Below are positions 36,335 through 64,000 of a stretch of DNA of 64,000 nucleotides, piece by piece (positions within the stretch are counted from its first letter, which is position 1; each line of letters opens with the position of its first letter). The position numbers and the translations under genes were made by a program. The DNA is from Takakia lepidozioides. Lineage: Eukaryota; Plantae; Bryophyta. Location of the stretch: the NCBI GenBank assembly GCA_030704615.1, contig CM060733.1, positions 18,600,001-18,664,000 of the forward strand, given 5' to 3'. The notes under the pieces are model-generated. The model saw only the letters and a program-made list of their open reading frames with translations. It made no database searches and had not been told where the DNA came from.

Positions 36335-37024
36335 GGTGGATAGGGTTCAGGCAATCCTGCCCAACCTGTCATGAGCAATACAATGTCAGCTAGTTTTACG
36401 GTATATTTATCAATGTGCATTGTCAGACGAACATGTGGAGCTAACAAAGTAGATAAAATTGGAGGCAGATTCTTTACTACACTTCCAAGCAAGTGGAAAG
36501 TCGGAGTCTTCACGAAATTGCTCTCCTCAAAATCCAAACATGTGCAATTCTTTGACTTCCTCAGAGATGACATGGAAGAGAGAGCCTTACTTCATCCCTC
36601 TCTTCTTTAAAAGTGTGAATTAGACAGATATTGCTGCACGGGTCTTCACCATGTTGCTGACACCGCACTCAACTAAGTCAGCCATCAAAGCCTAGCAAAT
36701 CATCCATGACAAGAGACCCAGCTAGCAGAATGCTTCGAGTTACAGACCTCACAGAGTCCAAATAACGTGTGCCCCTCAGCTTGGTGCCTTCAAGTTTGAA
36801 AGCAAATCAGCCCAAGAAAAGCTTTGTAGTCTCCAAGGATCATACATTCCCACTTGTGAGAAAAATAGCTGGAGAGAGGTTTTCCCAGGAAGATGCCATG
36901 GGCGAGGAGAAATCTTTTGAAGCGTGGACAATCCTTTCTGCACGGGAGCAATATAGCACCATCTGCTATCCGTCAAGCTGCAAGTACATCAAACAAGGAG
37001 AAAGATGCTTAAGGCCTGGAGAGA

Positions 37025-37410: not shown

Positions 37411-38981
37411 GAGAGAGAAAAACTATTCTCATGGCAACGGGAGGCCCAGATGGTTCACTTGAGAGACACAGAGAAGCCTAAGTCACAGTCGCACAGAAAA
37501 GCTATTGACAAATGATACCTTCGGGCTGCTACTGAGAGAGAGAAAAGCCAACCTGAACCATAAAATTGCAGCTGGATCTGACCATACACTGCTTCCTCAT
37601 GGACATCAGCACCCAATAAAATATGCAAATCCAGATCTTTCAACGAAACCTCAAAAGAACAACAATTCTCCTCTTTCCTAAGACACCACAACCCTAGAAG
37701 TATCCGACATTCAAATGCAGGAGGACCCGTCTGCTCAACCTAATATCCGAATGTGGGCTGGCAACAAACCTCCGCAGGCGGAAGCAGAAACGACCAGTCT
37801 CCTTGGCAACAGATCAACCGTCAACAACGAAGCCGGAAGCACACTATTATCTTGCACATCAAGTTGTCTCTCTCGGGTCTTGTCTCCTGCCAAGACATAG
37901 AGCCCCTCCTCCCTATTGAAACAGCTCCTTCGCTCACCCATGTGCCCACTGGCCCCTTGAAACAATCCCCCTGATCATCTTGCGCCGTTCAGGATGAACC
38001 AAATCCCACATTCAGAAGGCTTCCGTTCAACACATTTTCACAAAACAACTGAAACAATCAGTGGAACGACGACGTCGGTATTGAGTCATCCACGATCTCG
38101 CCAAGGCTTTCAAGGACGCTGGCCTGCCGATTTCTCTGTGTTTTCTTGAACGTTCAACCGACCCCCTACAACAGTGTTGCCCTGCAGGCTCAGTTGAACG
38201 TCCAATCTCCCCCTACCCAAATGGGTCCCCGTTCCTGTTTGTAAATGCTGGTCACCTAATATATAAAACCAAAGAGAGCAAAGTGAACTTATGCATCACA
38301 GCATTGCTGCATAGATTACAAGACATGGCCCCACTACATTCTACATTCCATCCATTACGTGTTGAAACATGTGGATGTCAAATGTGCATAAGCCCAAAAA
38401 GGACAACAGCAGGGCCAAGCCGTGGACATTGACTAGCCCGGGCTTCAACTGAAGATGTCTCCTTTCTTTTTTTTTTTCCTGGTCGACGAAATCTCGCAAT
38501 GGTAGATCATCAGAAAGGGATCATTTCCCTGAAAATGATCATCAGAAAGGGACCTGATGATTTCCCTGGAAATACAAAGGCAAAGCCCCAATAGCTTTTT
38601 AGAAAATGTGCGCATGCACACTGTTGCACGAGCCATTCGTGAGCAATGCGTAGGTAGATCACTGACAAACGTGGCGTGGACACAAGAGTGCTTGGCAGGA
38701 TCGAGGGCACAAGTCACTGACCGTCATTTCTATACATTTGAAGATGGTTCAGGTTCCAAGTTTACATTTTATGTGGACAATTGCAGTTGTGTAGTCCGTA
38801 ATCACCCTAGAAGCTGCAGGTGCAGCTTCGTTTAGTCCTGAGGTGACGGTACTGGGTCAAGGAGCCTTGCACCCTCGAGTCTGAGCGGCACACACGAGCT
38901 GTTTTTGTTAAGCAACATCTCTACTTTCTTCGGCTGTTGAGAGTGTTTGAGTTAAGGAATATCTGTTGATTGTCTCGAAGG

Positions 38982-40402
38982 ATGGCAAACACCACTGGAT
39001 TTCTGCAGATGAGCAAGGATCTACCGAGAGTGCCAGCGTCTGGGAACTTTGTGGATGGAGTTGCTTCCAAGGATGTCACCATAGATACAGAAACTGGTGT
39101 CTCGGCGCGGATCTTTTTACCCGAGAGTGCCACAGAGAAGAAGGTGCCAGTGGTGGTGTATTTCTTCGGAGGGGGTTTTGTGGTAGGAAGTACTGATATG
39201 TCATACGCTCATGGCCATTGCACCTCCACCTCTGTGGCGGCTAACGCAATGATGGTGGCTGTGAATTACCGACTCGCTCCTGAGCACCGGCTTCCAACAG
39301 CTTACGAAGATAGCTTCAGTGGTCTTCTCTGGCTCCAAAAGCAGGTATTCTAGAACCCTCGCCATTTTCGTTGTCCGTACGTATGACTGCGGCCTAGTAA
39401 CCCGATGTTGACCTAAACATCTCACTCCATTAGCTCCACCCCTTATCTCGATGTTTAGCAGCCATGACGCAAGTTCAGAGCAACGGTGGGACCCATCATT
39501 CCGGAACTAAATTTGGATGATCCACGCCCAGAATCATGAAATGCACGGTTGATTGCATACAAGTGTTACATGCTCCCTTTGCAATTCGCTTTACCCACAA
39601 ATCCAGATTGCAGGACATGGCTCGAGTCTTCAAGTCCATCCGTTGCAAGTCACGGAGATGTGTCTAGACATTCTTTGTGAGAACGATCGGTGACCCGAGA
39701 TGTACTTTGTAAGGCAGCTGTCTACGAAATAGGTGTTTGATAGCACGACTAGTGCTTTGCTAATTCTGGGCTAAAAGTCGAGAGCATACTTGTCTTCTCC
39801 TCTCGCTCATTGGCTCCATGATTTATTAAATGTTATCGCAGGCCATACTTCAAGCGAATGGAAGAGGAGGAGGTGAGCCATGGCTTATGGAACATGCCGA
39901 TTTCTCACAGTGCTTTCTGATGGGAGAGAGTGCGGGGGGCAACATCGTGCACCATATGGCAGTGCGAGCATCTAGCGAAGATCTAAGCCCTCTCTCTCTC
40001 AAAGGACTCATCCCTATAATTCCTGGCTTTGTGACACCGTCCCCAAGCACTTCTGAAGAGCGATACAAAAACGATCCTATGTTGACACCTGAGGTTATAG
40101 CTGCAATCCTTGGCCTATCTCTCCCCGTAGGAGCATCTAGAGATCATCCGTTTTCGACGGTTCCATTTGGCCCGGATGCTCCAAACCTTGCAGAGGTAAA
40201 TTTTCCTCGCATGTTGGTGATCGTAAATAAGGAGGATCCACTGTACGATGCGCAGCTCCAGTATGTTAATGGTCTCAAGAATATCGGCAAGGACGTGAAG
40301 CTATTTGAGATAGAGAAAGGGGGTCATGGCTACAGATTATCTAGTAATGAAGATGTCATCAGGACCCAAGAGAAGACCATATCTGATTTCATCCACTGCT
40401 AG
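38982..40402 (+). CDS. CXE: Carboxylesterase, CXE/GID1-like alpha/beta hydrolase. Exons 38982-39344 and 39842-40402.
   Basis: GVASKDVTID...VSARIFLP, VVYFFGGGFVVGS, VNYRLAPEHRLPTAYED, nucleophile motif GESAGGNIVHH, RDHPF, Asp in EDPL, His in GGHGY. Phase-0 GT-AG intron. Confidence 0.92.
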
Positions 40403-43534: not shown

Positions 43535-45281
43535 GAACAAACTATGTAAAACTTTAAAGACAAATATCACTATCAATATCAATATTTTTTATGAAGACAA
43601 TGAATTTTATCCAAGACAATTATCTTTATCAAGACACAATTATTTCGTATCAAAATTTCATGTAGACCTATACAACCATTATCTATTTTATCAAAAGGCT
43701 AACTCTAAATACCATTATTTATTGTAAAACATAAAAACATCTGATGATGCTTGACTTATGCAAAAGTTTCGTAAACAACATTCCTAATCCAAGAAAGCTT
43801 GATGAATCCAAACCAAATGCAGTCCATCTCTTCATAAAACTTGAGTATACCCCATAAACAAACTAAAAATTCATTGCACGTCGTATTTTCTCACCCTATG
43901 GAACAGTTATGAAAATATGTCGTCCATAACACTGAATTTTGAGAAATGACACCTTATTGCAAATTCATGTTGTACAGATTTATACTGAGTCTCTTTAAAT
44001 GTAACTACCTCATGAATAATAAAGTCTACTAGCATCGACTTATCTAGGCTTGCAACCTGCAGTCAGAAAATTCACCAATACTGCACAGATCATTAGCACC
44101 AGCCTGAATGGCAACATAAAATCGCGCATTGCACAAAATCAAATACCAGCAAAACATCTGAACCGGAGCATCTGCACAATCGATTACTCCTCACAATTAT
44201 TAGTAGCATTTTTTAAAGTTGCTATTGATTCACTCAAAGTGTAGGTAGATCATAAATCATGAGTATCAAGTTTCTCATTAGAAAACAAATGAATGGTCGT
44301 GATAGTCTAGCTATTAATGATCAACTTGGATGGATCAACAGTAGCTGCACTAGCACGCTTCGGATGAATCTGAAATACACAGTTAGTGAATGTCCCTAAA
44401 AATACATGACCAATATGGTTGTGAGAATCAGTCATGGTGATATTGTCTCCGTTCTTGTGAGAGTAGTAATTTTATACAGCATGATCAATATCTTTTATGG
44501 TTTTTTCATTCTAGTAAGGATCGTCACATAGGTCAACAGATTACAACTTGTGCATCTTCATCGGTACATCTGCAATCTCTTTCTCATCAACGTCCATTTC
44601 ATCTCCATGACTTTTGGTTCTTTTAAGAACACGCTGAGGCGAATGAACTAGTTGAGGGACAGAAACAAAAATTGTTGGAACATGATTCTCAACATCCATA
44701 TGAACCAACGGTGATGGTAGGGTGGCTGCATTATCAATTTTTGTGCCGCTTGATCCTGCAATAGACAAACGATAGAAATCATTATTAACTACTTCAAATC
44801 CTAGTATTAACTCCATCAACACCTATACAATTTCCAATTTGCACTTCTTTGTACAATCCGGTCGAGCAGCCCCTACGCTTCAATCCAACTTTTGTCGCCA
44901 CCAGTACTAGCCTCTCCACCGCCATATCATACACGCCCTCCTTATCAGAGTCATAACGCATGAAAGCCTCATGAGAGTGATTTATATGGTTCTCATTGCA
45001 ATTGGTACCCCCATCATATTCGTACGTTTACAGCCAGTTACTGGCCCAGTGTTGTTGAAATAATTTCCATCGGGAAGATCTAGAACAATTGCAACCATTT
45101 TCTTCAACCAAACTTACCAATGGTCTTCTTTTCAATGCGTTGTCGGGTATACCATATGTTTGATTTCTTCATTTTAGAAGCTCCACAGCTCTCAAAAATA
45201 GCGGCAAAGACTCGCCATTTGGATCCTCATGAAGCAATGGATGGTATTCGTAGAATGTCCTAAATGTATCATAAACATCTA

Positions 45282-45423
45282 CTAGGGTAGCCTGTGTCGT
45301 TGGCCCAAGTGTCAAGTGTCATCTAAGCCCAAGTGCAATCTCCTATGTGGAGGCCCAAGTGCGACCTCTAGGGTAGCCTCTGCCGTTGGCCCAAGGGTCC
45401 AATGTCATCTAAGTCCAAATGCA
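45282..45423. repeat. Imperfect direct repeat (~55 bp x2) with extra gcccaagtg units
   Basis: ctagggtagcct.tg.cgttggcccaag.gtc.a.tgtcatctaag.cca occurs at ~45282 and ~45368. Confidence 0.7.
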
Positions 45424-45904
45424 TTTTTTTTCTATAGAGCCTACGACTAGATTTGAACCGGAGACCTTTCCCTTGATATCTCTCCGCTCGAGGCTCCAAC
45501 CATTGTCCCAGGAATTCCCACTTTGCTATTTTCGGGAAATTTTAGCGACCCAAAGTACTTGAAAGTCCACATCTCCCACACCGCAGATCCAAAAATCATG
45601 AGACCAAGCCCCCCTCCTCGCCAAGGGCTTTCCAATGGTACCAAGCACCAGCGTTGGGGCCTCATGGTTGGGGACATCTCAAATCTACAAAACAAAACAA
45701 AACAAACGTCTCGCTTCATATGTTGATAGTGTAATCGTACATTTCACTGGGCGTCTTAACCTTCTTAGGTTGGCAGCTATTGTCACATTCCAATTTTTTG
45801 TTCCAGGCCTTTCTTGAAACTTAAGCACTCAACATGCAATATTATCATAATATCTTTAGCATATAGACTTAACAAACAAAAACATAAGAAAACAGATTAT
45901 TTAC

Positions 45905-45907
<3 letters not shown>

Positions 45908-45951
<44 letters not shown>
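45908..45951. repeat. (TA)n microsatellite, about 22 units
   Basis: Uninterrupted tatata run. Confidence 0.95.
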
Positions 45952-45953
<2 letters not shown>

Positions 45954-46891
45954 GGAGCCGGAGGTAGCGTAATTAATAAGAGCCTCTTCCCTTTGTAGGT
46001 ACTGCCCCCTTTGGGGGTGGGGTCTATCAAACCTAGAACCAGTTATATAGTGGCAAGCTGACCACTTTCAAAAAAAAAAATTGTTGAGGATTAAGGCTGT
46101 AAGTGACGTAATTGCTGTAAAGTATAGGGTGGTGTAGGAGTGGGGTGATGTATTTTACAGAAGTTTGAGGTTTTCTTTGAGAATTTGAGTGTTTGTGGCA
46201 ATGTGCTCACCCTCTGACACCAGCGGTAATGATAGTCAAAAGGGCAGTTTTCCATCCATGGTGACGAAGGGCTAAGATGAGCGGTTCATATTTTTCACAT
46301 TTAATAACATAATTGATTTGTTATAGTCTCTTCATGCCAAAATGTAAAATCTATTATATGAATGGTGAGGGAGGGGTGTGGACCTGTTGGTATTGTTGAT
46401 GAAAGAGGTAGTCCATGGATAAGTAGAATATCAGGGCATAACCTTGCTAGACAATGACATCGGATATAGAGATATGTGCAGGTAGAAGCCATAGAGGTTA
46501 GGTATTGTGTGGTCCGGTGATCTATCTTGAAACGTACCTGCATTGATGAGGCTAAACCATCTGGATTTAGGATGTGATAGAAGAAGTTTGAAGATGCCCT
46601 TGGGGGGTCACTTCCCGTATTTTCAAAACCACGTGAGAACAAATATAGGGTGCAATTTATTTTTTTGAGGTAAATTTTAGAAAAGTTTTACTTATAAAAT
46701 ATAGTAATGCAATATCCTTTCACCCAATTTTTTTTAAAAAAATATCACAAAATATCCAGAGTTTTACTTAAAAAATTAATGTAATAAAGAGTTTTATCTA
46801 CATCCTTGTGAAGTTTCTCATATTGCATCCCGCTCTAATCCATCAGGATGAAATCAGGTAGAGGTCACTTGAAGTTCAAATATGGTTATAG

Positions 46892-47600
46892 TGATACATA
46901 GTGGTGTCGTGCGCATACATATCGCTACACAACTACATCGCTGTCCAAAACCACACAACACATGTGCACACCACACACTAGTATACCACTAGTCCACCAC
47001 TAGTCTAACCACTAGTCCAACCACTAGGCTACAACTAGTCAGTCACTAGGCTGCCACTATGCTGCCCACTATGGTAGTCACTAGTCCACACAATGATAAA
47101 GAAGAAGGATACAAGCACGAGCTCACAAATCTGAAGCATAAACTCATGCATATATAACCTCATCACTCAAATACAAGTCAAGCCAAGTGCACCCCACGCC
47201 ATGGGGAATCCACACTACGGCGCCATAGCTAGGCGCGGTGGGGCTCAACTCGAGAAAGATGAGCCTTCCGCGCTTGCCGTAAAGATAACCACTCCAGGGC
47301 CTAAATCTGCCTTGACCCCTGGATTGACACTTGGGCCAATCCCAAATGTCAATATGTAAAAGCTAGCTATTTCCTAGCTAGTTTCACACTAGTGGTAAAA
47401 TAACTTGACAGCTGTCGTGCGCATACATATCGCTACACAACTACATCGCTGTCCAAAACCACACAACACATGTGCACACCACACACTAGTATACCACTAG
47501 TCCACCACTAGTCCAGCCACTAGTCCAACCACTAGGCTACAACTAGTCAGTCACTAGGCTGCCACTATGCTGCCCACTATGGCAGTCACTAGTCCACACA
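46892..47600 (-). mobile_element. 3' LTR of the Gypsy element, with an internal ~188-bp direct repeat
   Basis: On the minus strand, PPT AGGGGGGCG (~47603-47612) precedes TG at 47600. Near-identical blocks at 46905-47093 and 47413-47601. The candidate CA end at 46892 is less certain. Confidence 0.75.
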
Positions 47601-47860
47601 ATCGCCCCCCTAGCTAGTGCTTAGGTCCCTCTAAGTCCAGGTAGTCACAAGATGTGATAGTGACCATAGCCTCACTAAGTCCTCCACCACTATCCCTACT
47701 ACACTCAAACTCGATAGATCAAGAGGCCGGGTGCAAGAGTTGCCCCATCGTTAGTCGCCGTCTTGCAACATGTGAACTTGAGCTTGGGATCTCATGTATT
47801 GACTCCTATGAGCTTGGCCTCCCATGTCTTGTTAGCTGCCTCCAGTCATGTCCACTGCCA

Positions 47861-50800
47861 CTATCCCAAGCAGTGTGGACACAACCAATCTCCGTCAGGA
47901 ACCTTCTCAAGAGGTGGTGTCAAGCATCCCATATGCCAACCCCTTGAGCATCGATCACACACCAGCATGGTGGCTGCCCCTTTGGCAGACCCACAGAGCA
48001 TGCACCTCAAACCTGCAGGTACCACTGCCAAGTTTGGGTCAACTCTGCCATCGACATTGGGAAGGTGACATGGCGCACAATTACGCACATGGTCCTTCCA
48101 AGTCATGCCATCCCGACCCTCTAAGATCAGGACCCCTGAGGGCAACACCTCTCGAACCCTCAGAATAACACGCCCTGCAGTAACATCCAGAGTCGTAGGA
48201 GCAGTCTGCTGCAAATAAACATAGTCACCAGGGCTAAACCTCCGAACCCCAGGACGATATCCTCCACCACGTATAGTGGCATACCTCAACGTATCACAGT
48301 GCTGTGCAATGGCAAGGTCCATGGGCATGACTTTCTTGAACAACTCTGCACGCTGATCACATGCACGTACCCACACGTCCGGATCGTCAAGGTTAAGGAC
48401 TTGAGCAGTGTCCCTACGAATGGTTGCAGGCAAATCCGGCTCTCGGCCAAAGAGAAGGAAGGAGGCAAGTGATGCTTGTTTGCTGAACCTGTAGCCCATG
48501 CCTAACCAAGGAACCTGAAGATCCCAATCTCCTAGATGTCCCTTCTGCAAGCCATACTTGCGCAAACCCCTCTTCATCGTCTGAACAACTCTCTCTGCCA
48601 AGCCATCGGCCTCAGGATGATCCCGAGAAGTGGTGCGGTGGTCTATCAAGACTTTATCATACAAAGCCTGAAACTCCCCCAAGAACTCTCTCCCTTGGTC
48701 CGTGAGTACCTCAGCTGGAGCACCAAATCGGCTAAGCACACGATCCAAGAATGCATACGCAGCCCCCTCACTAGCCTTGTCAGGCAATGGAACCAACTCA
48801 ATCCACTTGGAGAAGTGCTCCACCATCACCAACACATATCTGTGGTGGCGCATAGTTAATGGCAACGGTCCTGCGAAGTCAAGACTCCACCTGTAGCCCA
48901 ATCCCATGATTGGTAAAGGATGCAACTGTGGTGTAGGGGCGTTGAATGAAGCACGCACCCTGTCACACACCATGCACCTAGCCACGAACTGTTGCACCTC
49001 TGTATGCATACCACGCCACCAATACTGCCCCTGCAGTAAACTGTGAGTGCGTCGCACTCCAAAATGCCCCAATTCCTCATGGGCATGCCGCACTTACCGT
49101 GCACGCTGTGTGGGGTGAGGCACAATCCTCACCCGACCATCCTCCCACACTCGAAGTAGGTGTATCCCCTCCCACTTGAACCTCTTGGCTCGTTGCAGGA
49201 TCCGATCCCTCTCCCTGGCAGTCACAGTGGCTGCCGTGTCTCCCGTGCGGAGGTAGTCCAACACAGCCGAATCCTCATGTATATCTCTGGCACCACCTGG
49301 CTCATCACTAGCCTCAGGGTCCTCAGACACTCCGTCTACAGTCATCCCTATTGTAGGTCCAACCTGACCTCCCGATGCCAAGATACACAAAAATACAGAT
49401 GCGTGCCATCCCGGCACCATCTCCTCGTCCGTCTCACCATGCCACCGAGCTCCTGTGTCATCCTGCTGGCTCATGCAGGGATTGCGACTCAATCCATCCA
49501 CATCCCGATTGACCAAACCTGGTCGATGCACAACCTGAAAGTCATACTCCTGGAGTATGAGTGCCCACCGTGCAAGCTTCCCCGTAAGCTTGTCTGACTC
49601 CATCAACCACTTGAGTGGTTGGTGATCCGTGACAAGGGTGAAAAGATTGCCGTATAGATAGCACCTGAAGTGTGCCACGGCCCACACTGCAGCTAAGCAC
49701 TCTCCCTCATATGAGCTGTACTTAGCCTCTGCAGCGTTGTTCGAGCGGCTAGCATAAGCCACTACGAACTCTCTTCCCTCATCATCCACCTGTGTGAGCA
49801 CCGCTCCAAGCCCCAGCATGCTCCAATCCGTATGCAACTAAAAGGGACGCCCCCTGATAGGTCGTCTCAGGATAGGCGCCGAGGTCAACCTCGCCTTGAG
49901 CTCTTGAAAAGCTCGTTCCTGCTCATCTTCCCACTGCCACTCCTGGTCCACCTTGGTCAGCTTGGTTAGAGCCTTTGCAATGGTACTAAATCCCTTGACA
50001 AACCGTCTATAATAGTTTGCCAACCCCATGAAAGCTCAAACTCGGCTCACATCCGTGGGGCGTGGAATTTGTGCAATGGCCTCTACCTTAGTCTGCTGTA
50101 CCCCCAATCCTCCAGGATATATCATGTGATCCAGATACTCAATCTGGTTGTGGAAAAACTTGCACTTCCCCGGATGCAACTTCAATCCGTGCGCTCTCAA
50201 GCGCTCCAATACCACTTGAAGGTGTCTCTCATGCTCATCCATCGTAACACTAAAGATGATGATGTCATCTATGTAGCACCGAACAAAGTCCACCCCTGCT
50301 AGAATCCTATCCATGACTCTCTGAAACTTTGCAGGAGCATTCTTAAGCCCAAATGGTAAGAACCGCCACTGATATAGGCAATCCTTGCCGTGCTCATTGA
50401 TCCCCCAGAATGCCGTCTTCTGCTTGTCCGCCTCCTTGATTAACAACTGGTGATATCCGGATCGTAAATCCAAAGTGCTAAAGGCCTTAGCATGCCCGAT
50501 GGCATCAAAGATTTCCTCTGGTGTTGGCATGGCATACTTATCGGACTTGGTCTGATGATTTACAGGCCGGTAATCACCGCACATACGTCTCTCCGTCCAA
50601 TTGCCATAGACATCCTTCTTGGCTGGCATCACTGTGGCTGAAGCATACTCTCCACCAGAGAGCTCCACCAAACCTGCCTCCCAGAGATCTTGAGTCCTCA
50701 TCTGAATCAAAGACCTCTCCATGTCACTGTATCTATAGGGTCTCCGAAAGATTGGCGTGTCAGTGGCCAACTCAATACGGATCTCTTGACCCTTCAGTGC

Positions 50801-51590
50801 TCCCAAGTCCTTCAAACTGAAGGCAAAGCAATTCCTGTAAGCCCTCAGGAACCGCCGTATACGTCGTCTCTCTCCTCCGGTGACAATGGGTCCAATGTCA
50901 GGCTCCCAATTGTCCTCCGTAACTACAACCTTAAGTCCAGTGGGCTTAGAGGTAGAGGACGCGTCCAGTGGTTGTTATGTTGCAACCTCTTGAGCAGTAC
51001 TCCGTGCCTGCTCAGTCAATGACAAGGCCTCATCCTGCCCCATCATCTCATCCTTGAGGACCTCCTCAACCCGAGAAGAATCCCCAACCTCATCCATCAC
51101 AGCCGCCTTGGCTGCCAACTCCCTCTGAACCTCGAGCACCTCCCACGTGTGCCATGGATGCATGCACCCTGTGGTCCTCACATGCTCGCCCCCACTCACT
51201 GCCTGTACCGTCTCGGTAGGCAGAGAGACCATTGAGGGAAGTGTACTCTGCACTCTGCGTTGCTCAGCCAGAGCCAAGCTGATAATCCAGGTCAAGCAAT
51301 TGAGATCCATTGCTTGCCCCAACACTTGATGACGTGATGCCTCAGAAAGAGACGACACTGCGTGGTACCAGTGGTAAAACCCATTGCCCGCTCACGCTCG
51401 TCAGCATTAGGCTCCACTAACTGCTGCAACTGAGCATCCCACAGGAGGCCAGGTCCACTATCCCGGAAAGCATGCGATCCTGGGAAGCTGAGCAGTGTAG
51501 GTAATGCTGCTCGTGGTTGACCCACCTTGTTGACCACTGCCAAAGGCAAATGGTCATCATGTCTCACACGCTGAGACTGCCTCCCTGTGT
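47861..51590 (-). mobile_element. Ty3/Gypsy LTR retrotransposon pol, 5'-truncated pseudogene: C5-MTase C-terminus, RT, RNase H, integrase, PHD finger
   Basis: RT: RMCGDYRPVN, LDLRSGYHQ, LPFGLKNAP, YIDD. RNase H: HTDWS, EGECLAAVWAV, TDHQPL. Integrase: HEELGH...CMVC, WSLDFAGP, LTDQGREF, DGLAERV. PHD C4HC3 at the end. ORFs 51358-50975, 50815-50036, 50029-49838, 49837-49094 and 49093-47861 all share one frame, broken only by single stop codons. Confidence 0.95.
51255..51590 (-). pseudogene. C-terminal fragment of a DNA (cytosine-5) methyltransferase domain inside the Gypsy polyprotein
   Basis: Repairing a 1-nt frameshift at ~51361 gives EPNADERERAMGFTTGTTAVSSLSEASRHQVLGQAMDLNCLTWII. This has the layout of C5-MTase motifs IX and X (compare DNMT3 [31 protein letters not shown]). 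Confidence 0.72.
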
Positions 51591-51620
51591 AAGGAACAAA
51601 AAACACAATGAATCATTTAC

Positions 51621-52860
51621 CTTCCATTGTCTAGTCTCCGACTTCATTGTGTGATCGTTGTACTTTTTCGGCCTCCCCCTTAGCTCGAAGAAATTCCGGG
51701 GATGTGCAACTTTCTCGGGGAATGTTGTGTCAAATTTTTGCGCCTTATTCGGGTCGTTTAGGAGCTTAGATAGCTTCACGAGCTTCATCAGATCCTTTGA
51801 CCATATAATCTTTGAGGACCAGTCAGAGTAATATTTCTTACGATTATCGTCGTCCACGTCTTGCACAAGTTTCTGCGACAGAATTGAATAAGGTTAGAAA
51901 TGTTAGTGACCTAACAAACATGTTGTTTAATGTTCAAGCATGTTCAAGCATGTTGTTACAAAAATTGGACTTTGTGGAGAAATTTACCTTGGCAACAATG
52001 ATGGTGTGTTGTCCACCGATGACGAAGAATCTGGACTTTTTCACCTCCTTCCAGTTTCGAAGTTTCGAACTGGAAACCTCCATAGGCTTCTCGGGGTTTG
52101 CGGGAGTCAAATAAACTAGATGTTTGGAGTCGAACACCCGGAGCTGGTAAAGACGCGCTTTGACTTTGTCTTTGTGCTTAACATTTAGGGGCCTGTATAC
52201 CATATCCTTGGGAGCAAGCTCCATCATGGAAACTTTGACGTCTTGGGTCATCTCAAACCCAAAGAAACATGTTATTGTAGTCTTGCTCCAGCCTCTCCTG
52301 CATCTTCTCACACTTCTCTTTGTCGAAGATGTCTGCAGCCTTGGGTTTCTTGTTATCTGTCATGAAAGCGGGATCCATCTCCTCCTTTTGTTTCTTCTTT
52401 CCCCCCGATGTCCCGGCTTCATTCTCATCACCTCCGGCGTCAGTGGATTTCCGTTTTCCCTTTCTTGGCCGCACTCTCGCAGCCTCTTCCTCCCGCGTCT
52501 TTGCAATCTCCTTACCCTTTAAGTAAAGCACATCCAAGAAAATACCCCAAGCCATGCAAAGACCTGCATCTGTAAATTGAGTACCGTCGTCGCAATATGT
52601 GAACCCCGCCCAGATGGACTCTCTCATCATGGCCTTCCTTAGAAGTCGTACCTCCAGTTTGAAGCCAAACGTTCTGGGAAATCTATCATCTTCCATCGTG
52701 AAAATGACCAGCATTGGAAATTCCACATCCATCTCCAGCTTTATGTCGACAACATCTGCATATTTGAGCTCGGCGACCTCTGCACCAATCTTGTAGTGGA
52801 ACTGGAACTTATGGTCCGAAGGTGTTCTAACGGGGACAATGCCCCATTCTGCGTTTTCCG
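51621..52860 (-). pseudogene. Truncated, frameshifted intron-containing gene of unknown, probably TE-associated family with a ParB/DGQHR-like motif
   Basis: Overlapping ORFs 52732-52253 and 52311-51934, phase-0 intron 51987-51873, then exon 51872-51621. Motif YRPLN...LVYLTP...FFVIGGQHTIIVAK. Basic NLS-like RPRKGKRK. Confidence 0.5.
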
Positions 52861-53532
52861 GGTTGAGCTAAAAAATTCTTCCTCTGTGGGCAGTTCGTCA
52901 GCGGCACTCGCTGAAGGGTAGGTGCCCTACATGTCATTGATGAAATTTAACTACCTTATACCTCTGCTTGCCTTTGAAGACACCTGAACATAAAACATTG
53001 TTTGCATACTTGTAAATTTAATTTTCAATCTGCTATTTCGTCGAGGGTTGTGCGTAGCATCGAGCGGCGAAGCCCTAGTTGATATGAATTTTCTTTACAT
53101 TTTCCTTCAAGACAAACCAAAATTTGACAAGTTTGACTCCACGGTCATAGACTCAGGCATTTCAGGGTTAACTTAGAGCATGTATAGCAGCACACTGAAT
53201 TTGATTTCTGGTCAAACCAATTTGAGCTTGCTTTGGGGGTCAAAGAATTGAAGGCCCTCCATATATTGTACATTTTGAGAGTCCTCAATACATCCCGGGA
53301 AGTTTAATCTTAGGTGGATTCTTGGAGTGGTGGCACAGAGTGGCACATACGGTGACTTGTGAGTGGTTCACCAATAATATACCGGGTATGAAAGGTGTTT
53401 GTTACTGGGTTTGTCACCTCCCTGCAGTGAATAGTTCAGGGTTGTAATCAGGGAGGTCGGTCATATGACGGATGATCTCAAGGACTGCAGGGTGCGCCCG
53501 GCTTGACGGAATTGTGGGGAGATTTTGGAAGC

Positions 53533-54957
53533 ATGAAGAAGTCAGGCCAGAAAGGGAAGAGAAAGGTGTCCGAAGCAGAGAATACTACTGTTGCCAAACG
53601 AACCAGAGAAGAGGGGGCAGAGGCTCCTTACGGTATCCCGGTATGTGTTCTAGTCTCTGGATTTTTATTGGTTTTGCTTTCACTCGCATGGGTTAGGTTC
53701 TTCAGAAGGAAGTGACAAGGTTTTGTGTTTGTTCTTCCAGGAAGGGTACTTGGAGATATGTTACAAACACGCTGACGACACAGTTGAGGTTGTGAAGCAG
53801 TCGTTTCATCTACCTTCCAAGCTTCTGATGAACTGTGAAGATCTGATTGGTGTTGGACTTGTTTTGAAACAAGTATGTGGAGGATTAAGCCATGTTCGTG
53901 ATTTAGGGTTTTGTTCCAGTACCTTGAGCAACATATTGCAGATGACCAGGATTTCCTGCAGCACCTTGGAGAGTCAAATAGGACGTCTCCCGTTCGAATC
54001 ATTTGCCGGCCTCCCGTTGTTGGTGTTGTAGCTTTGGACTCAAATAAGACACCAAAGAAATCTGACCTGGCAGAGAGGTATCGGGAATTTGCTCCTCCTC
54101 GATGACTCCGAAGAATGTGCATAGGGTTCAGAAACCTAAAGATCCTGAGAAGGGTCCCCTTTATCGATGTAGTCGTCCTGCTGATGCTGTAGGTCTTCTT
54201 GAAGCGCCTTTGATGCATCCCGCTTTCGGAACTTTCTTGGACAATTTGCGTGATGCATCCTTGCCAACAAGGGAGGATTATGCCTTTGTGAAAGAGTTCT
54301 GCGATACGAGCTCCGAGTTTTTACTCGACCGAGCTTGACCGAGCTTGAGCGTCAGATCGCAATTGCAGCGTTGTTGGTTCCATACTTGATCAGGAAAGTT
54401 GCTAGGCGTAAGATTGGGGCATTTGAAGTGGATGGATATATTGGCAGTGACACGTGCTTTCCAGTTTATGCGATACTAGAGGTGGAGAATGAGCTGGGCC
54501 AACAAATGCTGACAAATTTTTCCAGGGCCAGACTTGCTATGCTCTATTCTGTGATTATGCGCGATCCAGCAGCACGGAGTCGGCTAAGAAAGCTTTCGCA
54601 GCATGCAATTGCCCGATGTACCTAGTAGAATTTCGAGGTCCTCAGATGAGAGTCAGTGCGATGGCCTACTTCGGCCGAGCGCATACCAGTATGCTCACAG
54701 ATTTGGTCAATTTGTCCTACACAAATGAAAGCTTGCCCAATATTTTCAGGGCCTTGAAGCTGGGCATAGACAGTTTGGCATTATTCTACGCACAGATCGA
54801 GGAAGCAGGAAGAACATCTGCACGGCAGGAATGGTTGGGAAGTAAGGCGGTGCCGTACCCAGTTTGGTGGAATCCAAAGTTTAGGGTTTTGACGTCAAAT
54901 TCATTGACTTTGACTGGGCAGGCCAGGAGTCTGTGTGGACTTATCCGCCGAACATGA
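53533..54957 (+). pseudogene. Crinkler-type (fungal-like) PD-(D/E)xK nuclease-domain gene, frameshifted. Exons 53533-53640, 53741-53872, 53920 onward.
   Basis: Reconstruction: RP...PLMHPAFGTFLD...PTREDYAFVKEFC...ELERQ...EVDGYIG...ILEVENELG.TNADKFFQGQTCY...CPMYLVEFRGP...LTDLVNL...FRALKLGIDSLALFY. Frameshifts near 54102, 54335 (10-bp tandem duplication) and 54498. Confidence 0.62.
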
Positions 54958-55142
54958 ACCACGCAACTATCGCTTGGCCCGAAGGCGTGGCTGATGGGAA
55001 GCCCATGCTGCAGAGACACGACACTGACGTTCTTTCAAACCCAACAAAAACATCAACTTATGATTGGAGGATGTTTGTTAGACGAAGGCAATGTACGAAA
55101 GAGCTTCCAGTAGCTCCTTGTAGAGGGTCAGAACTGTAATTC

Positions 55143-55600
55143 TCAATGTTCCGTACAGAATTGGAAGACAGTAAGGACTGACCAACAATCACTTCTTTTT
55201 CCGAAGACTTTTTTGTGGACTAGTGCATAGCTCAGGCTCATCAAGTCAATGGAAGAGATGCCTGTCTTGTGCCCCTCGAACATCCACTCGCAGCCCACAA
55301 ACCCACATGTGGTAGCAGTGAAGTTTTTGTTACAACATGGACACTTCACAGTCTCTGCAATATTGAAAACCGTGAAGCCCTTCCCGCAGCCTACCTTTGA
55401 ACCATATGCTTCACATTGAACATTTTGGCACTTTCCTTCGATATTCAGGCCATAACTAAGTTTCCGCCAAGCTGGTTTAGGGTTTGGTCTGATCGGATGT
55501 GGGACTCGGAATTTATTTGTTCTTAGAGCGGACATATTCTCCATGTCTACAAAACTCTGAATGTTGTTGACATAAAGGATCACCTTGCCCGCTTTAACGC
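55143..55600 (-). CDS. Exon or gene fragment encoding a Cys-rich putative zinc-binding domain of a kind seen in protist and fungal proteins
   Basis: SFVDMEN...PAWRKLSYGLNIEGKCQNVQCEAYGSKVGCGKGFTVFNIAETVKCPCCNKNFTATTCGFVGCEWMFEGHK. Confidence 0.55.
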
Positions 55601-58600
55601 TGGTGCTCTTTCTGAATCATAGAATCAGAACAAGGGTGATACGTGCTCATGAGATAAGCACTCAAATCTTTGAGATCTAGAGACTACTTAAGGATATGAA
55701 AAATGGACAAACCTGGAAGAACGCCGTGAACTTGACCTGGCATGGCGATTGAAATATGAATCAAATGCAAGTTTCAGCAACATGCAGCACCGAATTCAAA
55801 GGTAGAAGCTCCTTTTACCCGTCTAAACATAATGTATAATGCTACATACATCACCTGCTCGTCAAAACAAATCTCTTCATCACCACAGAAAATAGAAGGC
55901 AACTTTGCAAGAGACAGAAGCTTCACCTTCATATTTCGTGCGCTCGTGACTCGGTTTCTCCGGCAAGAGCAATCACTTCACCAGCAGTTTACTAGAGAGC
56001 AGTCTATATTAGCGGTCCACCGCATGTTTAGATGGGGTTAAGCAATGGGCATGCAACAACAAAGTTGTAGGAAAGAAGGCCATATTCGTTAAATTGGCAC
56101 AGCTGCACTAAACTTAACTACTCCGGCACTACCCTTATTTTGAAATTGCATTGAACAATTGGCAATGTGAAATTTGCCAATTTAATGATTATGGCCTTAA
56201 GACTCACCAGTAATAGTGTGCCCAATTCAATGCAACAGAACTCTCAGTTGGAACTCGTGTTTTCACCAATGAATGTCGCCATGGCCATATACCTCAGCTG
56301 AAGGGTGGCAGCGTTTCGATGGCAAAGCTGCAAATTGATTAAAAGAGAAGTTTCTCTCGTGAACACTGTCCTGTCAAAATTGTTAGTAATTTTCACAAGT
56401 TCCATCGTATAAGTCTTCATACATAGCCCCAAAACCCCTTTTTAAAGGTACAATGATTACACAATATGCAACTTACAGTATGCTTAGATTCAGAGATTGT
56501 TAATACTGTAGGCTATAACGTCTCAAAAAGGGCTGAATATATCGTCTTCTGGACCTATTTGCTCTAGCTGCAACGCTAACTGGCAAACAAAAGAGGGACA
56601 CAGTGATGATGTAAGCCAAAAACCATGGTGCCTATTCTGATTTCTAGTTGGACAACTTGGACTTGAATATGCACATGTTAGAGTTTCAAAAATTGTGCCA
56701 TCTCTCTTCAAGAAATTCTGTTTGGACGTCTACATTGACAAAAACCTACGGTACTTCAGCCATCTCCAGTTTGGGTAAAATGGAAGCAATTTAGTCTGTT
56801 TCTCCTGTGGGTCTTCTTCGCATTGAGCGCGTTTCGCAGCTAAGCCCTGGACGCTTCAGTCCTCTCGCATCACCAGCAGGACGGACTGCATGCCAGCATG
56901 TGAATTTCGATCATCCCAGAAACATAATACTACTCATGAGCATAAACTCACAAGTAGGTGGCACGCAATTATCAATGGCATTAATTTCATATTGGTCGGC
57001 AACTGGAGCATTGATTCAAACGGCTTCAAGAACGGTATGAAATTTATCTGTGTCAACACTTGTGGCCAGAATGTTGTGTGTTTACTAACCAGTCATTGGA
57101 TCTCTGTGCACCAATCTTCTAGGGGAGGGCCTCGAGTGGAGGGCCCTCCCCTATACGTAAAGAACTGGCCACATTTCTTTTCCCGAGAGTAAAAGATGAG
57201 CAGCAGTGCACGCATAGGTAATCTACACGATGCATTCCATTTCGAGAGAATGCACTGCCCCTGACAGGCGGGAAAAGGCGATTATGCAGATTTGAAGTGT
57301 GGCAAGATGCAGCCTCTTCGCAGCCTCTTTCTACACGATCTGGCGAGGTAAGGGTCTGGATGAGTGTAATCAGCAACTAAGTGAATTCATGAGTGGACTC
57401 ATTGTGAGCGCCGAAATGGCCACCAGTCTTAGTGTTCACCTCAAGTACAGCTCATGATTTCACCAAAGCAGGTCTAATTATCACATATTTTACTTGGTAC
57501 AAGTAAAAGTCGTACTTCATACAATATTACAGAATGGATATCTACACAACAAAGTGTTGTGAGTAGATTGAAGCGAGCAGTATTTGATTTCTTCTGTATA
57601 CTTAAGTAGGGCAATTTCAGTTACAAGTTTGTGTCTGTAGAGCGAGGGATTGCGAAAATTTTAATAGAAGTGATAACCCGTTTTTTCTTAAGTTTCTGAG
57701 TTTTGAGTGAATTATTGGCTTAAACCTGCTTGGAAACGAACATGATAGCTTACAAGTCTTGTGTGGCTGGTAGTCCGGAATGGGCTTAAATCGAAGAGCG
57801 TGCTTTGGTTTCTGCTCACCTCACTTGATATACCTGCTTCTTGTTTCATGGAGAGCTTTTGTTTGGGTGCACATCAGAATTTAAGCTTGACATGGGCTAA
57901 TGGATAACATGGATATGGGTGGGCATTTCCCGGCATTTTCCGCTGGCACCCACACTCTTCCCCTAAGGATGGGCTCTATAAATATGCAGCTCCCCGGCAC
58001 GCGCGAAGGGTGGCGGCAGGTGGCACAAACAGGTGGCAGGTGGTTGATGCAGGGAGAACGCTGAAACGCAGGGTGGAGAGCCGGGCATTCTCGGGGTGCT
58101 CGACGGCACACTTCCTTGCGTTCTGACGGCGTGACCGGAAGTTTTTGCCCGGGAATGGCCACCGGCTCCGGGATTCAAGTATGAAGCTGGTTTTTTGGCA
58201 TCTGTCATAGCAAACAGCTTGGAATGTAACTTCAGGGTACTCAGTAACTTGGGTAGGCTAACAACAAAGAGCAATTTGGCTTCCCTCACAAATTGCCCCC
58301 AATTTTGGGGGATGTGGGGATCCCATGAGAGAAATGGGCATTTTGACCCCCCTGTTTTCCCATACAAAGCAACCATTACGCATTTTTGGAATTTGGCTCT
58401 GGAATTTTGGGAGGCTTTGCTGTGCCATCTGAATCAGGGTAGGTTGTATCAATGAAAAATCGAAAAGGTAGGCCATCTGATTGGTCAAACCAAATTTTCA
58501 TGTTTGAAAATACATCCTGCAAAATTTTTTGGCCTAGGACTTTGTTATAATCTTTCAAATTAGACGGTCAAATCTCCTGAAATTTTTACTGGAGGTGCAT

Positions 58601-58734
58601 GAAGTAGGTAGGATCACTTTGGTGCGGTTCATCCCCTCGGATGTTTCTCAAATGAGAGATATACCCTCATCCATGAGGGTATGTCTGGTTTTGGATGGCC
58701 CCCCCTCAAAAACAGGCTCGTCCTCAAGGGGTTA

Positions 58735-58867
58735 AAAGTGTCGCATTATACGTGTCCTAGTCGTATTATGGAGGGAGTTTCATACACAGAAAAGTTTGGT
58801 GCTCAAAATTTTCGTCGTATAATCGAGGTGTCATATTATGGAGTGTCGTATTATCGAGGTTAGACTG
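58735..58867. mobile_element. One terminus of a Tc1/pogo-like DNA element
   Basis: The minus strand reads TA|CAGTCTAACCTCGATAATACGACAC, which is pogo/Tigger-like with a TA target. Five subterminal gtcgtattat-like repeats. The partner TIR was not found. Confidence 0.55.
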
Positions 58868-59423
58868 TATCAGGTCCTGGGTGCTTGTAACTGAGAAAGC
58901 ATGTCTTTGGTTCTGCTGATTCTGCTTCATTGATGATTGTGTTAGGTCTCCCTCTGACCGGATTCCTGATTGTATATGTGGAATTTTGAGGAGTTATTAT
59001 TATCTCGACGAGTGCAAGTTGCACTCGCTTTGTGACTCAGGGCTGATATTTTAATATTTTTACAATGTGAATTATGAAGTATAATTGGTTTAGCATTGGT
59101 AGAGTGGTAGAATTTGTAGTATTTCTATTGTTACCATTCCACCTTCCCAAGCGCCGGGAATACCAATTCCCCGAAATGTATTGAGGTTGAAGATGCGTCG
59201 TCATGTCATGAAGTGGGAGAATGGTAACTCCTAATAATCCATGCATGGAGGAAGTAACGTTTTCAAGGAATGGCATTCCGGGAGGATTGTCCTCGTCTGA
59301 CACCTGCTATTTGAGAAGCCAAGAATTTCAATCCTTGGATAATGCATTGAGGTTGGAGGAGAGGGTGGCACCTTGTCATACATTTCATGAAGTAGGAGAA
59401 TGGTAACTTGAGATAACTTGAAG

Positions 59424-59600
59424 CACTAGTAGAAAACCTGTCAATTGTGACCTTCCGTTATGTGACTGACTGTCCGTTTTGACTGATTATGTGACTGGAT
59501 TTGAGGATGTGTACGTGATGTGGCATTACGCCTTTAAAACGCTGAATGTAGTGGGAGACATCATGACCTTTTTGTAATGACCAATTGCGTTACTTTCACG
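59424..59600 (+). mobile_element. CACTA (En/Spm) element left terminus
   Basis: CACTAGTAGAAAA terminal motif followed by repeated tgtgac/tgac subterminal units. The right end was not found. Confidence 0.55.
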
Positions 59601-59608
59601 TGCAACCT

Positions 59609-60185
59609 CTGACAGGATGGTACGCTGGTTTCCGGCATGTCAAATCTTCCCCACCCTGTCTTGAGGGTGACATGGAACTGAAGGAGTGTCAACTCCAGTC
59701 GGGGTTACACTGGGTTACACGACGAGGTGTGTAACTCCACTTGGGGTTACACAGAATGGAGTGTAACTCCAGTCGGTGTAACCCACACTTGGTCTCGAAA
59801 TTTGACTAAGTCCAAATGTGGCTAAGTATAAAATGGACCAACTAGAGTTACATGAGAAATCGAGGTTACAGAGGGTTACACCAAGTGAAGGGTTACATCG
59901 ACCAGGGTTACACCGAGTGGAGGGTTACATCAATCGGGGTTCCACCGAGTGTAGGGCTACATCAACTGGGGTTACACTGCCACAGCCTCCCATCAGGAAC
60001 TGAGCCCATAACCTCGCAGTCTCCATTGCTATCACCTTACCATCACGCTACCCACCACAGCTTGCAACCCACTCGGATTCATAAGTATTCAATAGTGAAA
60101 CCAAGATAATATGGGGTGGGGAAGATTTGACAGGAGCCCCGCCGGAGGAGCCCAGGTTGCCGGAATCCGGCGAAAGTACTGTCAG
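59609..60185. mobile_element. Foldback/MITE-like element with long imperfect TIRs and an internal GGTTACA array
   Basis: tgtcaaatcttccccaccc (59638-59656) is the exact reverse complement of 60114-60132. The outer arms ctgacag...ttccggca and tgccggaa...ctgtcag also pair. Confidence 0.65.
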
Positions 60186-62197
60186 ATCACACGCGTCCAT
60201 TAAGTTCTTACATTATTCATATTATCTTCCCTCGCTTATTTTCCCGATACTGTCTCTTCAATGATAAACTTCTCTTGTCACTGATGAATGTGCACAGTTT
60301 CTAACAACTGCAGTTGTTTCTTCGTCGCCACAATAACGTCGAATAAAAATGGTAGATGCCAAAATTGTTCATTACCACGATAGTAACTCCACGAATTCCG
60401 ATCATTTCCGCAACCCTCATTAAACAGACATGATTCATTCGAAGATTTGACCATCGGAGATTTCAAAGCTGGTTCGTCAAGTCTGTAAGTATCTACACTA
60501 AGTTATATCCAAATGGTACTTCCGTGACCATTATTTTATGATGAACCCTTTGCTTCTCTGTATAATTCACTCAGTCCCCACAGAAGCTGGAAGCCACCAG
60601 TATATAATTAATTACATACCCAATATTCGTAAAACAAGCTTTGAAAATGAACATTGACATTCTCAGTGCTTCTCCAACAATTGTAGCAATTGCACTCTTT
60701 ATTACGACATCGTCAAACTATAAAAATACTCGCAAACCTGCCTATAGAATGTCCAGTCACTACCACACAGTAAAGTTGTTCACCGTCGACTCAGTTTCTT
60801 TTTAAAATAAACCAAATACTGCTGATGAAACTCCTCCAAAAGAAGAAACATGTACAGACACTTCATGCTACCATCTACCTAAACAGACGGTGAGTGCACT
60901 GTGCCCATGCAACTCGAATACTACATATTAACAAACCAGTAATCATAGCATGTAGAATTCTGCGATGTAGAACATGTTTGACAGAAACACATCATCATGA
61001 GCGACGGGTAGATACCCGACTTTGCACAATCTAAGGTCATGCCACACTTGTCCCGACGAACTTTTACATTTTTCTGAAGTTGTATGTTCAGTATGTCTAC
61101 ATCGTTGTGTCCTGGAAATGTTCCAAATACTTCATTTTGCAGACAAACAAGGGCAGTACACCTGTCTCGAAACATCCGGAGTGGAATTTACCAGAGAGAA
61201 GTTCATTTCGGAGATAAACTTACCGTCATGTCCTTTGTGACTGAAGTGTCCGTTCTGACTGATCCGTTGTGACCAAGATGAACACAGTCACATTCTGCAG
61301 AATATGTCCAGGCTTGTAACTCAAACTCTAGTCACAAATGCAGTTATATTAGACTGGTTTCCTACCAGTGAAGTTGGATGAAGTTAACTTTCTCTGAAGA
61401 TTGCTCCTGTGACACCCACTATTACCTCTTCTATGATGCTTTAGTGATCTTACAATGGCTTGTACACTGCAGGCCAATTTGATTTCAAAAATCGTTAATA
61501 TTTTCATTAAGTGTTTCAGAACTGTACAACAGAAGGATCCAAATGAGACTTTGCTATGGCGAGGATCCGCGATCACTGTCCAATGCATCCCCGGCCTCAT
61601 GCATGGATGGCTGCCTTCCACCTGCCTCCGAACCTGCACTGCTGCTATCGCTGTTACTCCGAGAAGCCCTCCCCTCAAAAATACCATCCTCACCAACTGG
61701 AACTGTCCACCTGGGTGCGGAACTGTCCTCATCATCCCCCTCGCTCTCGGACGCGGATTCTATGACGAACTTGCCTACTCTGCCTTTCACAATTCCATGT
61801 TTGGCCTCACGCCTCATTATAATTCTCTGCTCCTTCCCGAATATCAATTGCTCGAACTGAGTAGGCCTATCCTCCCTCCTGATGGCTTCTCTGGATCATT
61901 AGGGGGTGCCAGAGTGGCAGGGCGATCATTGCATCACTGCCAACTGGTAAGGATCCTCTTTGTTTTTGGACAACATATTGAAGGTGGCAAGTTTCGCTCT
62001 TCCAATATTCTGTCCCTCCCATCTGTAGTCTCTCATTAGCTCCATGCTGATTCTGGCAAGTTACACATAGAAGTGGTAACCATGGGAGGAAGGGGGCTAT
62101 GGTAGTTTCAGTTGTGGATAGTTTAACAGTCCACTGGACTTAAGGTTGGCTATGTCTAGATTACATACCATTGCATGCTGCAGTTGGATATATGGGC

Positions 62198-62616
62198 TGT
62201 TGCTTGTCAACGTAAGTATCTAGAGCTCTTATAAATGTAGTCAAAAGCCTGTATTAAAGATATGCATGAAATTGTAAGTCTTAAAGCTGTAGACTTAGCT
62301 GTGGAGCTATTGTACAAAGCTTACACCAGAATGTAGTTCTTCATTGCAAGGAAAAAAAACGAATACACGGGAGCACAGAAGAGATATACATGGCTCTACA
62401 CCAGCCGATATACTCGGCAGAAGGACTATGTATGGCGGGAGCACCAAGTTCAAACTCCACTGCCAGGCTGTAACAAATACTCCACTGCCAGCTATAACTA
62501 ATATGGACGTGAATGTCAAAGTCCTAGATACTATACCGCAGATATAAAGAAGTAATCTGATCTGAAAGTGGAACTATCACTTACATTGATCATTCTTGAA
62601 TCTAGATATTACAACA
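62198..62616 (-). mobile_element. Candidate 3' LTR of the Copia element
   Basis: On the minus strand, PPT-like TAGTGGGAG is directly followed by TGTTG at 62616. A matching CAACA end at 62198 is inferred. Confidence 0.5.
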
Positions 62617-62655
62617 CTCCCACTAAGAATGATCAATGTAATAGTATCCTCCCAC

Positions 62656-63400: not shown

Positions 63401-63519
63401 TTGAGCAGTAGGCTCAGTAAATTCACTGGACGTTAAAGAAACTTTATCTTTATCTTTATCCTTTATCTTTGTTCTATCTTTGATTCAGCTTCAACCAGCA
63501 GGAAATTGAGATTGTGAAA

Positions 63520-64000
63520 TCATACCGGTACCTGGGTATGGTTATCCACTCCCCCAAGTTTCACTTTGCAGCCACTGCCCTGGACAGATTGACTAAAGGT
63601 AAGGCGGCCTCCGTCCGCCTTCAGGCCAAATGCAAGCAAATACATCTGCGTCATCCCCCAACCAAAAAGTGGCTGTTTGACACCGTCGTCAGCCCTGCTA
63701 CCATCTATGGTTGTGAGTTCTGGGCACCTGGCGTCCCTGTCTCCTGGTGGGAAAAGAATTTGGAACCATTCCAGTCATCTTTTCTCCAAGCAATGCTTGG
63801 CGCCAGGAGCACAACTCCATCTCAGATCCTAGGTGCAGAGTTCGCATGTGTACCATTGCAATCCGAGGCCCTCTTCCGGCTTACAATCTTTCTCCATAGA
63901 TTACAGGCCCTTCCACCCAAGGGGCTCGTGGCAAGGGCCCTCACATGTACAACATCTATGAGGCTCAAAGCTGCAGGTTTCAGGAACTCCTGGTATGCTC
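63520..64000 (+). mobile_element. LINE (RTE-like) ORF2 fragment, RT thumb region, running off the window
   Basis: YRYLG...KKWLFDTVVSPATIYGCEFWAP...LEPFQSSFLQAMLGARSTTPSQILGAEF matches the YxYLG...LFxxxVxPxxxYGxExW pattern of non-LTR RTs. Confidence 0.75.

Follow-up and report, generated by a model that had tools for sequence, protein, structure and literature searches.

A PHD-bearing Gypsy copy and its split repeats

The stretch of DNA analysed here, 64,000 nucleotides long and referred to as the window, carries on its minus strand a dead and 5'-truncated Gypsy retrotransposon whose Pol ends in a PHD finger (Table 1). In the family the domain order is that of Ty3/Gypsy elements (PR-RT-RH-INT), with a DDE integrase. 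A single frame running from 51391 to 47861 is interrupted by stops at 50975-77, 50036-38, 49838-40 and 49094-96; the last three lie within pol and are counted as breakage, while the first is not damage. At the 5' end only a fragment of a DNMT3-like methyltransferase (MTase) is retained, which matches the MTase of the relative P0103 at 56% over 59 aa. A displaced N-terminus of this MTase is unsupported, as PF00145 has no match in the six frames of 50000-64000 and the rest of the window has no further MTase piece on the strand of the element. The window contains no tRNA genes.

Table 1. Positions of the element's features and of neighbouring loci in the window.
Feature	Position	Strand	Remarks
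Nramp/MntH-type transporter gene	34847-36346	-	intronless; nearest named relatives in mosses and liverworts, 64-71%
Alpha/beta-hydrolase (carboxylesterase-like) gene	38970-40402	+	in two parts
Repeat B2	46905..47094	-	98% identity to B1; 3' end of the element
Repeat A2	47095..47410	-	starts TGTCA after a 2-nt linker; 5' partner A1 lost from this copy
Repeat B1	47413..47602	-	190 nt, ending ..GACA
Polypurine-tract-like run	47605..47611	-	directly before B1; same run in L001, L020, L047 and L075
PHD finger	47870..48004	-	C4HC3; last Pol domain; stop codon at 47861-47863
SH3-like beta-barrel, putative integrase C-terminal domain	48056..48241	-	just upstream of the PHD; strands from the model
Integrase H2C2 zinc finger and rve core	48614..49093	-	Pfam; in-frame stop 49094-49096 directly upstream
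RNase H region	49544..50035	-	Pfam; disrupted by stops 49838-40 and 50036-38
Reverse transcriptase core	50132..50587	-	PF00078, E 8.8e-31
Predicted long stem 3' of the conserved stop	50855..50966	-	arms 50943-50966 and 50855-50890, chosen post hoc
Family-conserved in-frame stop and CAA-CCA	50969..50977	-	stop at 50975-77; type I readthrough context
DNMT3-like C5 methyltransferase, C-terminal third	51240..51590	-	frameshift near 51360; catalytic part absent; element ends at 51590
Sequence adjoining the 5' break	51591-52870	-	moderately repeated; broken ORFs; no Pfam match
Decayed Copia-type pol fragment; LINE-like frame	~63400-64000	-; +	by eye from translations

Contigs of run X1, which comes from the host organism and may be the window's own source, align to 45001-54000 in large number (63,490); their summed depth is not a copy number and was used only for extent and breakpoints. 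This depth is uniform over the span from MTase fragment to PHD and falls at ~51600 and ~46900, and at 51590 31 contigs continue into different sequence. Taken with the internal stops, this shows the window copy to be a dead, 5'-truncated member of a highly repeated family, the PHD region being present in other copies. At position 49840, within one of the pol stops, the window base departs from 631768/633822 of the summed depth in the same run. Contigs of two further runs, guessed to be RNA, cover the element in part and were not taken as evidence of expression. One stretch of the repeated sequence adjoining the 5' break may resemble ParB/DGQHR-like motifs.

Four full-length relatives (L001, L020, L047 and L075) carry split direct repeats in the order A1...B1-A2-B2, from which the window retains B1-A2-B2. 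Full-length relatives begin with TG (TA in one decayed copy), finish with CA, and show a 4-bp target duplication in 4/4 distinct copies, ends that are typical of DDE integration. A B1-B2 pair lies 3' of the PHD in 15/39 loci with enough flank, in addition to the window, three unrelated tandem matches having been excluded. The B1|A2 junction (47411-47412 in the window) reads ..ACA-NN-TGTCA.. there and in the four relatives, decayed in L047. It resembles the end-to-end junction of a retroviral circle, the two ends of the element being the same two motifs, and hints at how a DDE integrase yields split repeats.

The PHD finger: fold, conservation and putative ligand

The sequence-only reading had described an intact C4HC3 PHD with a W-x-C-P-x-C ending. 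All ligands are indeed intact, and 47861-48004 translates to the peptide given there followed by LG and the stop. The Pfam profile PF00628, which had been proposed as a check, matches with 41.5 bits (cutoff 24, E 1.4e-10) at residues 364-408 of a 410-aa frame in which Integrase_H2C2 and rve are found too. An AlphaFold2 model of the last 149 residues (mean pLDDT 81, alignment of 37 sequences) consists of a beta-barrel followed by the PHD, the latter with a pLDDT of 88-94. The modelled finger superposes on those of DPF2, BAZ2A and ATXR5 with an rmsd of 0.6-1.3 A, and also on those of ORC1b and UHRF1; its top fold match is ATXR5 (Z 9.7, rmsd 1.4 A over 52 residues). The PHD finger at the end of Pol is thus genuine. 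The barrel has no Pfam match, and in the model it compares with RSV integrase 4fw1 at Z 6.3 and an rmsd of 1.8 A over 49 residues, tied with many SH3, Tudor and KOW barrels; it is read as the probable usual integrase C-terminal domain.

An initial search gave a PHD in 34/35 matches, a figure biased by the PHD in the query. With a PHD-free integrase query, 118 proteins were retrieved, and the PHD is present in 86/118 and in 85/89 of those long enough to reach its position, far from being missing from most family copies. Among the best 80 of 159 confirmed metagenome loci, ranked with a PHD-containing query, it occurs in 54/56 informative loci (40/42 after deduplication), the two misses being breaks; in the same set all ligands are retained in 18/40 deduplicated PHD loci, the others being decayed. 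The named hosts of relatives comprise Marchantia, Sphagnum, Calypogeia, Coleochaete, Closterium, Klebsormidium, Volvox, Tetrabaena and Chlamydomonas eustigma, and the nearest named relatives of the window integrase are from liverworts (Calypogeia 82-89%, Riccia 84%); none was found among viral contigs. Together with the moss and liverwort relatives of the neighbouring Nramp gene, this makes a host of bryophyte grade likely. In a quick RT-RH tree of 55 rows, with one decayed family member (L078) as outgroup, the window and the Klebsormidium nitens rows fall in different supported subgroups. The PHD is dispensable in some branches, since Pol ends without it in a Closterium-type group (P0154, P0158, P0180, P0186, P0207 and P0211).

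Between the relatives L004 and L005, dN and dS are 0.07 and 1.48 for the PHD, 0.06 and 1.53 for the RT, and 0.17 and 1.38 for the MTase, that is, dN/dS of ~0.05 for the PHD and ~0.12 for the MTase. The median pN/pS of the PHD is 0.37 over 45 pairs, which are non-independent and mostly saturated. These ratios indicate that both PHD and MTase of the family are under purifying selection.

Several family members appear under other names. The Marchantia gene Mp_7g09570 (P0212) is listed as a host gene with a PHD domain but is what remains of an integrase-PHD of the Gypsy-DNMT3 family. Two family proteins (P0068 and P0193) carry bacterial names (cyanobacterium and Burkholderiaceae bacterium) and probably derive from plants or algae whose DNA was binned with metagenomes. 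At L046, L048, L059 and L072, family copies are inverted against or within other copies of the same family.

The nearest solved fingers, for the most part readers of unmethylated H3, include KDM5B PHD1, KDM5A PHD1, PHF21A, CHD4, ATXR5, BAZ2A, UHRF1 and AIRE. The window finger shares with H3K4me0-type PHDs (KDM5B PHD1, PHF21A, ATXR5, BAZ2A, UHRF1) the fold and the equivalents of KDM5B L325, D328 and W351, i.e. the hydrophobic strand before Cys3, the R2-binding Asp and the A1-pocket Trp. It differs from them in being net basic and in lacking the acids for K4 and T3: Ala stands at the equivalents of D308 and E321, so that the K4-reading acid before Cys1 is missing. In KDM5B, D308 reads K4 and its mutation costs ~6-fold, that of E321 ~10-fold. 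A Trp two residues before the His builds the K4me3 cage, and such a Trp is found in 1/70 family fingers, whereas the Asp after Cys3 is found in 66/70. KDM5A/B PHD1, PHF21A, AIRE and CHD4 are classed as H3K4me0 readers (PMC6979384).

These residues make H3 binding by the window finger plausible, and the best reading is that of a weak reader of the H3 N-terminus relying on avidity. A changed ligand is a real alternative: the fingers of this clade may have ceased to read histones and may serve as basic zinc modules for DNA binding, for stabilising the integration complex or for contacting some other host protein. The two acidic H3 contacts are largely lost in the window's clade (D308-type acid in 2/18 fingers, E321-type in 1/18) and 17/18 of its fingers are net basic, whereas the chlorophyte-type relatives retain them more often (8/17 and 16/17, respectively) and are net negative in 15/17; moreover, most human PHDs are negative in an H3 screen (31/123 constructs bound). 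However, the equivalents of D328, L325 and W351 are retained, and ATXR5, which is the top fold match and has been solved with H3, likewise lacks an acid in the place of E321 in the alignment as printed. We therefore regard loss of histone reading as unlikely, and retain the weak H3 reader.

A conserved stop and the pairing of PHD with methyltransferase

The intact relative L004 consists of two ORFs in frame with each other, ORF1 (1369 aa) with Gag, protease and a PF00145 MTase closest to DNMT3A/B/C, and ORF2 (1047 aa) with RT-RH-INT-PHD, divided by a stop codon that corresponds to the first one in the window frame. It is UAA in the window and UAG in other host copies (596917/602475 of summed depth, 99%, in run X1). 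Its context was compared, with CAR-YY counted by hand, in 34 distinct loci, two others having been dropped as too near a contig end. The stop is followed by CAR-YY in 28/34, by a C-to-T variant in 4, and is rearranged in 2, against a background in which CAR-YY follows 0.67% of all stop triplets. The full CAR-YYA is found in the host family and in 8/34 loci; CAA-CCC is the sequence of the most common subfamily. Many of the 28 loci belong to one subfamily, and about eight diverged types keep the signal while the encoded residues vary. The MTase lies inside the Pol ORF, with no stop before the RT, in P0013, P0103 and K. nitens P0139.

A stem starting ~12 nt past the stop is predicted in most members, with single-sequence folds of z -0.5 to -2.4 in 7/7. 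In a post hoc duplex test the cognate pairing ranked in the best 3% of ~226 windows for 7/9 members (L020 and L063 failed), and it topped its row in only 2/9; RNAalifold gave no consensus structure across ten post-stop sequences. Together, the conserved stop, the CAR-YY in 28/34 loci and the predicted stem-loop point to a programmed readthrough signal. It appears fairly improbable that ORF2 is instead reached by splicing, the UAG serving as a 3' splice site, or by re-initiation. The UAG does end in AG, an AUG precedes the conserved RT Trp in 5/9 tested members, and the gag-pol stop of Tca2 need not be bypassed via its local context, according to the parts of PMC2194720 available to us. However, the conservation sits 3' of the stop, the two ORFs are in frame, T makes up only 15-35% of the 40 nt upstream, and no AUG precedes the Trp in the other 4/9 members (window, L004, L006 and L007); the last two points favour readthrough over re-initiation or splicing.

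UAG-CAR-YYA is described as the tobamovirus type I readthrough motif (PMC3542737, in the portion accessible), with which the present elements share the in-frame UAG and CAR-YY(A). Tca2, SIRE1 and MuLV are described as stop-separated retroelements (PMC2194720); here the stop divides Gag-PR-DNMT from RT-RH-INT-PHD. A conserved readthrough-type stop of this kind is not described in the openly available texts of papers and preprints that were searched.

The sequence-only reading had proposed that the element carries both a chromatin reader and a DNA-methylation writer, and had asked whether PHD and MTase co-occur among relatives. The proposal stands for the family but fails for the window copy, where only the C-terminal MTase fragment is left. 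Among the best 80 of 159 loci, an MTase lies upstream in 31/40 (24/30 after deduplication), and both domains are present in 19/26 long-enough loci (16/21). Of 22 loci that could be scored, 21 retain the catalytic Cys and 9 retain all of the five catalytic residues examined.

A loose parallel with the ADD(PHD-like)-plus-catalytic layout of DNMT3 had also been drawn. In its strongest form the PHD would read H3K4me0 and directly aim or activate the element's own MTase on chromatin, and this is consistent with the co-occurrence in 16/21 deduplicated loci, with PHD and MTase within single ORFs in P0103, P0013 and P0020, with the DNMT3-like nature of the MTase and with a finger of the K4me0 sequence type. 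Nevertheless, the finger has the canonical PHD form; the profile search gave no ADD match for it, and its 59 solved matches include no DNMT3 or ATRX chain. In some branches the MTase precedes the RT and in chlorophyte members it sits between RNase H and the integrase, while the PHD follows the integrase in every architecture seen. For the analogy to hold, reader and writer would have to be neighbours on a single chain, whereas in the window's clade ~1000 residues and the conserved stop lie between them. The parallel is therefore weak and a direct coupling of this kind very unlikely.

In six chlorophyte-type relatives (P0016, P0035, P0111, P0112, P0021 and P0157) Pol extends beyond the PHD into a Tudor-like domain (PF21743, E ~3e-4 in P0111, P0112 and P0021). 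In some chlorophyte-type Pols there is a tail whose motifs resemble those of N6-adenine MTases (PF02086, E 4e-4 in P0035; by eye in P0016), and P0016 also has a DNMT3-like domain. Such relatives would differ from the chromodomain-bearing EpiLTRs in combining, within a single Pol, PHD, Tudor, a 5mC writer and possibly a 6mA writer.

Known elements and a possible mode of targeting

In chromoviruses the chromodomain is located after the SH3-like barrel of the integrase, and REM1 reportedly has an antisense PHD-chromo ORF. The available text of PMC6673714 and bioRxiv 2021.11.30.470311 describes the chromovirus integrase as tipped by its chromodomain. The present family likewise has a histone-reader fold at the integrase C-terminus, but it is a PHD, and the repeats are split instead of forming two plain LTRs. 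The earlier view of a PHD in place of a chromodomain is thus correct as to position, after the integrase barrel, but unsupported as to replacement: a chromodomain is listed in none of the 118 relatives nor in the window frame, and the likeness is positional only.

The closest described element is KnitGypsy-Dnmt3 of Klebsormidium nitens, with Gypsy domains, DNMT3 and DIRS-like repeats (de Mendoza et al. 2018, PMC5890265). Compared with its description in the text, it matches in the Gypsy pol with a DNMT3-like domain, in domain order and in the DIRS-like split repeats. One K. nitens protein (KFL_009030040) is PR-DNMT-RT-RH-INT, with 45% identity to the MTase of L004 and 55% in the integrase, and another (KFL_005000010) is INT-PHD. 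The word PHD is absent from the main text and three supplement files of PMC5890265, although Fig. 4c may draw one. As described there, the DNMT lies in the Pol ORF, whereas the window's clade has the conserved stop before the RT; the window copy in addition resides in a likely land-plant host, is dead, and is without the catalytic part of the MTase. In the yeast assay of that study, as far as its text goes, SymbioDIRS-Dnmt3 alone is named as active, although a K. nitens domain was tested.

Gypsy-7a_cRei of Chlamydomonas reinhardtii (15.4 kb) has a PHD in its Gag-Pol and intergenic insertions 2.6-fold over expectation (Craig et al., PMC9940879). The available text proposes that the PHD limits harmful insertions, but the intergenic bias may reflect selection. 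By description, a PHD in a Gypsy Gag-Pol is common to both; no MTase is among the domains listed for Gypsy-7a, and the legend puts its PHD before INT. The EpiLTRs combine a chromatin reader and DNA methyltransferases in LTR elements, and the accessible text names a streptophyte 'Gypsy-DNMT3' as prior art (bioRxiv 10.64898/2026.05.21.726589); as described there, their reader is a chromodomain, a DAM is added and their DNMT is sister to DNMT4. PHDs are described as common transposon accessories in the portions seen of PMC6673714, PMC8557442 and bioRxiv 2021.11.30.470311, whereas the REXdb paper does not contain the word. The building blocks, DNMT3 in Gypsy and PHD in Gypsy Pol, are therefore already published; neither the PHD-DNMT3 pairing in text nor Gypsy-DNMT3 in land plants is described in the same open literature as searched above.

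On balance, we think it probable that in active members of this Gypsy-DNMT3 family, of which the window holds a dead copy with a genuine PHD, the finger tethers the integration complex to nucleosomes via the H3 N-terminus, and that the MTase is part of a separate upstream protein. Ribosomes would pass the UAG at low frequency, which would leave Gag-PR-DNMT abundant and the PHD-integrase scarce, and the element's protease may then free the domains. The MTase may methylate the cDNA or the fresh insertion, an idea of de Mendoza et al., while the PHD would bind H3 A1/R2 weakly with a preference for unmethylated K4, gain avidity from the integrase multimer and steer insertions off active promoters. 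Reader and writer would in this way share a particle and not form a polypeptide switch. A PHD that binds H3 but acts after insertion, through local chromatin remodelling or evasion of silencing and with no part in site choice, appears highly improbable. The available text of PMC9940879 does speak of chromatin remodelling when describing what PHDs do in transposons, and it does not decide between targeting and selection, but the fusion of the finger to the integrase tail in all architectures seen suits a tether that is present at integration.

Beyond tethering via H3, a broader and distinctly tentative scenario would be a split-repeat Gypsy group spanning the green lineage, in which UAG readthrough and the 3' stem keep DNMT3 at the level of Gag, where it may pre-methylate the element's own cDNA, while the scarce PHD-integrase may read unmethylated H3K4 and place the pre-marked copy in silent chromatin. 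The proposal that transposon PHDs guide integration dates back to 2003 (as cited by PMC6673714 and PMC9940879), with no demonstration in the available text of those papers. In this family it is directly testable, given the intact L004 and L005, the acidic chlorophyte versus basic streptophyte fingers, and the PHD-less Closterium-type branch, which represents a natural control for targeting. For annotation, the conserved stop between MTase and RT is not to be taken for damage. Given the leaky-stop signal, MTase would be expected to outnumber integrase by far, a prediction relevant to the purpose of transposon-borne DNMT3s. If true, the broader scenario would mean PHD-guided targeting of a retrotransposon, so far only proposed in the papers cited, together with recoding that separates an epigenetic writer from its reader.
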